A stretch of 64,000 bases of DNA from an uncultured Rhodospirillaceae bacterium. GTDB taxonomy: Bacteria; Pseudomonadota; Alphaproteobacteria; Rhodospirillales; UBA2165. The stretch lies in the NCBI GenBank assembly GCA_964566055.1, contig CAZMHI010000004.1, positions 20,053 through 84,052 of the forward strand. Direction: 5' to 3'. Below, piece after piece: positions 61,041 through 62,087 of this stretch. Numbering within the stretch: the stretch's first letter is position 1; the number at the start of each line of letters is the position of its first letter. The position numbers were made by a program, and so were the translations under genes. The notes below the pieces were generated by a model. The model searched no databases. It saw nothing but the letters and a program-made list of their open reading frames with translations, and was not told the origin of the DNA.

Positions 61041-62087
61041 ATGGATGGCGATCATCTTCGCTTGACCCAGTTGTCTCACGGCGGCGGTTGAGGTTGTAAA
61101 GTAGCACCGTCGGTGCTTGACGACATACTTTCTAAATTACCGCCTTCCGCCAAGTATCCAAACTTGCTGGTCGGCGTTGAAACCGGTGACGATTCGGCTG
61201 TTTATAAAATCAATGATGAACAAGCTGTGGTCGCAACGACCGATTTCTTTATGCCGATTGTCGATGATCCTTATGATTTTGGACGGATTTCTGCAACCAA
61301 TGCGCTTTCGGATATCTACGCGATTGGCGGCCAGCCCATCATGGCGCTGGCGATTGCCGGCTTTCCGGTCAATTCGATGTCAGATGAAGATATTGGCCAG
61401 GTCTTGGCCGGTGGCGCTGCGGTTTGTGAAGCGGCGGGTGTGCCGGTTGCCGGAGGCCATACCATTGATGCCAAAGAGCCGATCTATGGCTTGGCTGTTA
61501 CCGGCATCATTCATCCTGATAAAATCAAACGTAATTCAGATGGTCAGGCGGGCGATGTGCTGATCCTCGGTAAAGGTCTTGGCGTTGGAATTTTGGGTGC
61601 CGCCATGAACAAAGACGAGCTTGATCCCAAGGGCTATAAAGTCATGGTCGAAAGCACGACCAAGCTTAATTCCGTCGGTTCTGAACTGGCCGCCTTGACC
61701 GAAATCAATGCATTAACTGACGTAACAGGCTTTGGTCTCTGTGGTCACATGTATGAGTTCTGTAAAGGAGCTGGTCTGTCGGCAAATCTCGTTTGGGACC
61801 AGTTGCCGTTGCTGGATACTGTGCTTGATTATGCCCAAAAAGGCTACAACACCGGTGCTGCTGGCCGCAATTGGGATAGCTTTGCCGATTTTGTTGTCGT
61901 TCCGGACGGCATGGAGCAATGGCAGAAAAACCTGTTGATGGATCCGCAGACCAGTGGTGGTCTGTTAGCTTCCTGTCCGCCGGAAGCGGCTGAGAAAGTT
62001 CTTAAGACTTTCCACGATGCTGGTTTTGATCATGCCTGTGTCATTGGCGAGTTAAGCGCCGGTGATGCGAAAGTGACCGTAACATAG
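61041..62087 (+). CDS. selD: Selenide, water dikinase (selenophosphate synthetase) SelD, predicted selenocysteine-containing form
   Basis: The ORF track starts at 61113. The upstream in-frame ATG 61041 gives MDGDHLRLTQLSHGGG-U-GCKVAPSVLDDIL..., with TGA at 61089-61091. This is collinear with E. coli SelD [25 protein letters not shown], and the UGA aligns with Cys17. The remainder (DDSAVYKI...ATTDFFMPIVDDPYDFGRISATNALSDIYAIGG) is canonical SelD. Confidence 0.85.
61093..61124 (+). other. Candidate SECIS hairpin for the selD UGA
   Basis: Upper stem AGCACC-GUC-GGUGCU (61103-61117, perfect 6 bp with a GUC loop). Lower stem GUUGU/ACGAC (61093-97 / 61120-24, one G-U pair). It starts 2 nt after the UGA codon. 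Confidence 0.45.

Follow-up and report, generated by a model that had tools for sequence, protein, structure and literature searches.

The stretch of DNA analysed here, called the window, is 64,000 nucleotides (nt) long. It comes from an uncultured Rhodospirillaceae bacterium (assembly GCA_964566055.1, contig CAZMHI010000004.1, positions 20,053 to 84,052). The plus strand of the window carries selD, the gene for selenide, water dikinase, with an in-frame TGA at codon 17. We read this TGA as a putative selenocysteine (Sec) codon served by a downstream Sec insertion sequence (SECIS) hairpin. The features of the locus are as follows.

61041..62087, plus strand: full-length selD coding sequence, 347 sense codons including the Sec UGA codon 17, plus the stop TAG.
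61028..61031, plus strand: Shine-Dalgarno-like AGGA, 9 nt 5' of ATG 61041, read from the sequence.
61041..61088, plus strand: N-terminal extension omitted by the gene call, codons 1-16, MDGDHLRLTQLSHGGG.
61089..61091, plus strand: in-frame TGA, assigned as Sec codon 17 from UGA conservation and a gap-free alignment to 3U0O.
61101..61117, plus strand: predicted SECIS core, a 17-nt block (GTAGCACCGTCGGTGCT) that is invariant in 22 of 22 orthologues.
61113..61115, plus strand: GTG (Val25), mistaken for a start by open reading frame (ORF) callers; it lies within the 3' arm of the hairpin.

The frame is open from the ATG at 61041-43 to the stop TAG at 62085-87. Its sole interruption is the TGA at 61089-91, and there are no other frame disruptions. 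The nearest upstream in-frame stop is a TAA at 61017-19, with no start codon between it and ATG 61041, so this ATG is the sole candidate start. Read through the TGA, the translation runs MDGDHLRLTQLSHGGG up to the UGA position and continues as GCKVAPSVLDDIL... beyond it. Inspection of the sequence found no comparable Shine-Dalgarno motif at a usable distance before GTG 61113. An earlier note on this DNA had placed the ATG at 61041, the TGA at 61089-91, the GTG at 61113 and the hairpin at 61103-61117, and every one of these coordinates matches the sequence.

GTG 61113 is where the mechanical ORF list begins the gene, and public gene calls do the same. The identical public protein (P0001) has 324 amino acids. 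This GTG-initiated product lacks the loop that bears Sec/Cys17 and Lys20, and the automatic gene call is 24 codons too short. The same holds beyond this genome. Among the best 120 public homologues (65-100% identity), 119 were called at 306-327 amino acids, most of them at 320-327, and these cover just 88-93% of the full-length query. The only full-length call among the 120 is P0097 (348 amino acids, 65% identity), which carries Cys. The public gene calls for the clade essentially all lose the SelD N-terminus at the GTG.

The product was scored on family profiles with Cys in place of the UGA. It reached 500.8 bits on the NCBIfam SelD equivalog NF002098 (cut-off, 299), which spans residues 4-345 of 348, and 415.1 bits on TIGR00476 (cut-off, 125). 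Both alignments start at residue 4-7, within the extension skipped by the gene call. For the identical product P0001, precomputed annotation lists the PurM-like domains AIRS and AIRS_C (PF00586 and PF02769). By these scores the product of 61041-62087 is SelD, selenide, water dikinase, at the equivalog level, and by family membership it is predicted to make selenophosphate from selenide with ATP.

In Escherichia coli SelD, Cys17 and Lys20 are both needed for catalysis. That protein is also the best match of solved structure (3U0O; E = 4.5e-97, 328.7 bits). The alignment is gap-free over residues 4-106 and places U17 on Cys17 and K20 on Lys20. The UGA therefore occupies the Cys17 position, and Lys20 is kept. 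This bears out the earlier note, which had called the extension collinear with E. coli SelD and the UGA a replacement of the catalytic Cys17. The loops read SHGAG-C-GCK in E. coli and SHGGG-U-GCK here, with identical numbering. The two genes differ in that E. coli encodes Cys (TGC/TGT) and needs no SECIS, whereas this selD has a UGA and a hairpin. The SelD of Aquifex aeolicus (PDB 2ZOD/2YYE) belongs to the same fold family (E = 1.2e-51) but is far more distant and lacks the second loop Cys. The loop of its crystallised chain is SSG-C-AAK, which resembles a U-G-A-K variant found in one metagenome-assembled genome (MAG; L007, described below). We take native A. aeolicus SelD to have Sec at this loop site.

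Relatives were collected from metagenomes and from GTDB genomes. The metagenome scan used only the truncated 324-amino-acid product as its query, so the sampling was blind to codon 17. In the metagenomes, 25 loci at 63-96% identity had a readable N-terminus, and codon 17 is TGA in every one. In relatives at no more than 59% identity the codon is TGT or TGC. The flanks in the 25 TGA loci follow the pattern M-D-x(4)-RLT[QET]LSHGGG-U-GCKVAPSVL. Except in L106, where only 11 codons of contig precede the TGA, each has an ATG 15-17 codons before the TGA. Of the metagenome loci taken together with nine GTDB loci that were re-scanned with a looser pattern, 24 had TGT or TGC and 25 had TGA. The GTDB genome scan used the full-length query and was skewed to the Cys type, as one back-translated pattern was HGGGCGCK. 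Among the GTDB matches listed, plus loci L001-L006, at least 69 have TGC or TGT at codon 17 and at least 8 have TGA. The nearest named genomes among the matches listed are two MAGs of the Rhodospirillales/Rhodospirillaceae, L007 (72% identity) and L008 (67%), and both have a TGA-type selD. One Burkholderiales MAG (L054) among these matches also has one. A UGA-type selD of 71% identity sits on the 1.57-Mb contig JGI12316J15309_10000585.

The extension itself is conserved as protein. In a codon alignment of 20 distinct orthologues, an ATG lies 15-17 codons 5' of the TGA in 19. Nine of the 16 extension codons (codons 7-9 and 11-16) have an invariant amino acid and use 2-6 synonymous codons each. 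Because these codons vary synonymously at a fixed amino acid, the upstream peptide appears to be translated and selected rather than to be a 5' leader. Codons 18-26 are also invariant in amino acid, with synonymous variation outside the hairpin. The claim that the ORF call had lost the true N-terminus thus holds up, since the profiles and 3U0O align inside the extension and the upstream codons are under selection.

The hairpin AGCACC-GUC-GGUGCU at 61103-61117 has a 6-bp stem and a 3-nt GUC loop that starts 17 nt past the UGA. It is present in the minimum free energy (MFE) fold of 71 nt (-24.5 kcal/mol; z = -2.3; 1 of 200 shuffles as good). Folded alone, it has an MFE of -7.7 kcal/mol. RNAalifold on 22 orthologues predicts solely this 6-bp hairpin (-7.74 kcal/mol), with every pair invariant.

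Codon usage marks the same interval. The 20 distinct UGA-type orthologues share 98 columns with an invariant amino acid and at least four possible codons. Two or more codons are used in 93 of these columns, and a single codon is used in 5. The 5 are the consecutive codons 21-25 (GTA GCA CCG TCG GTG), which are the hairpin. The chance that 5 random columns among 98 form one run is 94/C(98,5), or about 1.4e-6. In 86 distinct Cys-type homologues each of positions 21-25 uses 4-6 codons, and residue 24 varies. The nucleotide freeze is therefore specific to the UGA-carrying genes. Across orthologues sharing 63-100% identity, no base of the 17-nt block (GUAGCACCGUCGGUGCU) changes, whether in the loop, in the closing pairs or in the two positions just 5' of the stem. 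In L007 (Rhodospirillales MAG BS30m-G14, 10000-10060) the SelD loop reads SHSGG-U-G-A-K, with Cys19 changed to Ala. The downstream hairpin AGCACCGTCGGTGCT is nevertheless retained exactly, and Val21 is changed to Ile through GTA to ATA, outside the stem. The UGA-type SelD of the Burkholderiales MAG L054 differs, as other downstream sequence, with another predicted stem-loop, replaces the invariant block.

A published model of the bacterial SECIS, restated in a 2026 review, requires a loop of 3-9 nt, an upper stem of 4-16 bp, an MFE of -7.5 kcal/mol or lower and 16-37 nt from the UGA to the loop (PMC13188914). It also calls for a G within the first two positions of the loop, and the next base is usually G or U (PMC13188914). 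The hairpin in selD lies within all four numerical limits of this model, which is the bSECISearch model devised by Zhang and Gladyshev (GUC loop, 3 nt; stem, 6 bp; spacing, 17 nt; -7.7 kcal/mol). Two of its values are at the permissive edge, as the triloop has the smallest size permitted and the MFE is close to the threshold. An Rfam scan returned no family match, which is uninformative because Rfam covers bacterial SECIS elements little or not at all. The nucleotide constraint and the fit to the model support the view that the 61103-61117 hairpin behaves as a SECIS.

The earlier note had described the hairpin together with a supporting lower stem. The 6-bp hairpin stands (invariant in 22 of 22), whereas the lower stem is not demonstrably conserved. 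A lower stem that includes the UGA is possible in the MFE fold and is 81-93% paired across the 22 orthologues, against 39-49% for slid partners. Its structure was derived from the window sequence itself, and its conservation is no better than column composition, since within-column shuffles match the observed pairing in 83 of 500 cases.

Two other genes in the window carry an in-frame UGA at a redox Cys position; the same note had likewise counted two other UGA genes.

39147..39590, minus strand: Bcp/PrxQ-type peroxiredoxin with UGA at codon 44 (TPG-U-T, the peroxidatic Cys), TGA at 39461-39459.
51671..52291, plus strand: AhpD-like "peroxidase-related enzyme" with UGA at codon 95 (C-T-Y-U), TGA at 51953-55.

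The peroxiredoxin matches Pfam AhpC-TSA over residues 5-126, spanning the UGA, and the thiol peroxidase model NF006960 over residues 2-145. It has a 3' hairpin with the loop CGUGAUC. The ORF list holds no entry of at least 150 amino acids at this position. The gene lies directly upstream of a Cys-type AhpD/CMD-like paralogue at 38527-39135 (C-H-Y-C) and a GST-like gene at 37792-38526, and the three form a small antioxidant cluster. The AhpD-like gene matches TIGR01926 over residues 14-193, across the UGA, but its 56.9 bits fall short of the 81.8 cut-off. It also has a weak match to the AhpD_rel_CFYUT (seleno)protein. Public gene calls split it into products of 94 and 105 amino acids, and a spurious minus-strand ORF (51812-52300, no family match) overlies it. 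In the peroxiredoxin gene and the AhpD-like gene alike, the UGA is followed after 17-21 nt by a hairpin whose loop contains G-U (z about -0.4, not significant alone).

A further candidate lies about 5-7 kb beyond the window start. It was found on L162, a metagenomic contig with the same genes as the window start. The gene (L162:15683-17317) belongs to the UGSC family and is read through a TGA (...AILGVGL-U-STCSP...). It is called as 96 + 436 amino acids, and in another assembly as 96 + 123 + 307. It adjoins a thioredoxin-reductase-like gene (Pyr_redox_2, 310 amino acids). It is probably a fourth selenoprotein of the organism. The peroxiredoxin, AhpD-like and UGSC proteins all belong to selenoprotein families already listed in the literature.

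The locus very probably encodes a full-length Sec-containing SelD that starts at 61041, the 61103-61117 hairpin directing SelB-dependent insertion of Sec at UGA17. Translation would begin at ATG 61041. Once the ribosome meets the UGA at 61089-91, the hairpin in the mRNA would act as a bacterial SECIS and recruit SelB.GTP.Sec-tRNA(Sec), so that Sec is inserted and termination does not occur. GTG 61113 would be merely Val25. The predicted product is a 347-residue SelD with a catalytic Sec17 in its N-terminal glycine-rich loop. We infer that SelB binds, that Sec is actually inserted and that the enzyme is active. Since SelD produces the selenium donor for its own Sec, its expression is expected to be self-reinforcing and selenium-dependent.

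Several points weigh against this reading. A tRNA scan of the 64-kb window returned nothing, and no tRNA-Sec, selA or selB was found in it, nor were these genes found within about 10 kb past either window end, as extended through identical proteins in other contigs. The UGA-type relatives examined likewise have no sel genes within 10 kb of selD, including on Mb-scale contigs. These searches used ARAGORN on more than 160 loci and tblastn with alphaproteobacterial SelA and SelB from L044 and L076, which were verified by TIGR00474 and TIGR00475. As a positive control, the same searches recovered selA-selB-selC beside selD in Cys-type genomes, including two Alphaproteobacteria, and nowhere else. 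The method therefore works, and the sel genes are just not near selD. In the two Cys-type loci L044 (6445-11029) and L076 (6451-11032), selD is divergent beside selA-selB-tRNA(Sec). In Alphaproteobacteria the selC gene can also lie within selB (PMC13188914). For the present genome we infer the trans-acting Sec machinery. The hairpin also has its own weak points. Its MFE of -7.7 kcal/mol barely clears the -7.5 threshold. All six pairs are invariant in 22 sequences, hence there is no covariation, and the conservation is strictly a nucleotide-level constraint on a sequence that can form the hairpin. The 20 orthologues are phylogenetically related, yet 93 of the 98 comparable columns have diverged.

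The UGA could instead be a genuine stop. The upstream frame would then yield a 16-residue peptide or nothing, and a functional 324-amino-acid protein would start at GTG 61113. This is the start given by the ORF list and by every public gene caller for the clade, and TGA does serve as a stop elsewhere in the window. However, that protein would be missing the glycine-rich loop, where Cys/Sec17 and Lys20 sit and which the SelD profiles and E. coli SelD cover in their alignments. The 16 codons upstream are under purifying selection at the amino acid level, with synonymous change left free. The GTG has no Shine-Dalgarno motif before it and is buried in a stable hairpin. The GTG at 61113 is not conserved as a start; it belongs to the invariant V-A-P-S-V block. 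Starting there leaves both the conserved upstream peptide and the frozen hairpin unexplained, and we consider it extremely improbable. A pseudogene, or a sequencing or assembly error in a Cys-type selD, has a probability close to negligible. TGA is one base away from TGC or TGT, but the same TGA occurs in independently assembled contigs of many samples and in orthologues down to 63% identity. The gene has no second lesion of its frame, and the entire ORF is under purifying selection.

Another possibility is that read-through of the UGA inserts a residue other than Sec, always or some of the time. Insertion of Cys, or of Trp by a near-cognate tRNA, might for example give Cys17 or Trp17, above all under selenium shortage. 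In its favour, the DNA searched yielded no Sec machinery, and bacteria are known to show low-level non-Sec read-through of UGA. Such decoding does not account for a SECIS-conforming hairpin that is extremely conserved in exactly the UGA-type genes and not in the Cys-type genes. The aligned residue in homologues is always Cys, and three UGA/Cys genes lie on one contig. If Cys were intended, a single change from TGA to TGC or TGT would suffice, yet TGA is retained in 25 of 25 relatives. Non-Sec decoding is thus very improbable. A global code reassignment was rejected because TGA is the ordinary terminator of 12 of the 60 window genes.

Sec-containing SelD has been described since the 1990s, and its possible self-dependence has been discussed for decades. 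The SelD of Haemophilus influenzae is one such bacterial protein. SelD is the second most widespread bacterial selenoprotein. In prokaryotes 19% of SelD genes specify Sec, "always in the same position", and the genes of selenoproteins are "usually misannotated" (PMC4561486). The present gene agrees with the Sec-containing bacterial SelD proteins surveyed in PMC4561486 and PMC1794560. It belongs to the same family and has the same single UGA position in the Gly-rich loop, as the earlier note had expected from known Sec-SelD proteins. It also has a stem-loop immediately 3' in the coding sequence and is typically mis-annotated as truncated. It does not differ in kind, and its lineage is one of uncultured marine Rhodospirillales-like Alphaproteobacteria. 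The gene conceptually adds nothing new and is an ordinary case of a well-known selenoprotein.

The finding corrects a systematic annotation error in public SelD gene calls and marks this lineage of uncultured marine Alphaproteobacteria as Sec-decoding. Its redox genes that are split or end in UGA therefore need re-inspection (two in the window, one just outside). The finding also agrees with a published proposal that the Sec trait of marine communities poor in FdhA may be maintained by SelD instead (PMC13188914).

One feature alone is mildly unusual. The 17-nt SECIS core stays completely invariant among orthologues as little as 63% identical, which could reflect lineage-specific recognition by SelB. 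A generic hairpin would not need invariance at all 17 nt. The SelB of this marine lineage might recognise the element with strong sequence specificity, or the element might have an additional role, for example in selenium-dependent autoregulation of selD through occlusion of the internal GTG or ribosome pausing. Either would make it a lineage-specific SECIS class, which we consider rather unlikely. If true, the class would be usable as a search key for the clade's remaining selenoproteome.

Other candidates from a broader scan of in-frame TGAs were set aside. Same-frame ORF neighbours across a TGA were dropped where no Cys alignment or domain spanned the TGA, as with the TGAs at 13509, 32527, 33482, 44138, 57469 and 59961. 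The pair at 20582-21025 and 21032-21928 (plus strand) has no Cys context and is most likely two adjacent genes. The first is an aegerolysin-like ORF of 147 codons that ends in TGA at 21023-25. The ATG of the second, an endonuclease/exonuclease/phosphatase-family gene, follows two codons on at 21032 in the same frame.

The region directly upstream of selD (58988-60938, plus strand) encodes an Rv2258c-like winged helix-turn-helix S-adenosylmethionine methyltransferase and a GNAT-like protein. The methyltransferase carries HDHDHGHSH, a His-rich insert, and faintly resembles arsenite-methyltransferase models. L159 and L160 also carry unrelated methyltransferase and acetyltransferase genes a few kb before selD. 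A link between the upstream methyltransferase and the methylation of selenium or metalloids is pure speculation. Directly 3' of selD (62149-64000, plus strand, continued in L155 and L156) are ubiT (SCP2), ubiU and ubiV (peptidase U32), which encode O2-independent ubiquinone biosynthesis. Beyond them are a radical-SAM/SPASM gene and a cobalamin (cbi/cob) cluster.

Elsewhere in the window (4206-17847, 23264-26936, 45696-47990 and 50288-51658) genes for anaerobic or aromatic catabolism are dense. They include an XylR-type sigma-54 activator and a phenylphosphate-synthase-like pair (PEP-utilizers and PPDK_N). They also include two UbiD-family carboxylases, a UbiX-like flavoprotein, and HpaB- and LigB-like enzymes. 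The set contains three xanthine-dehydrogenase-family molybdenum hydroxylases, two of them with flavin adenine dinucleotide and 2Fe-2S subunits. Some enzymes of the xanthine dehydrogenase family use a labile selenium cofactor. Such enzymes would be a possible second customer for SelD.

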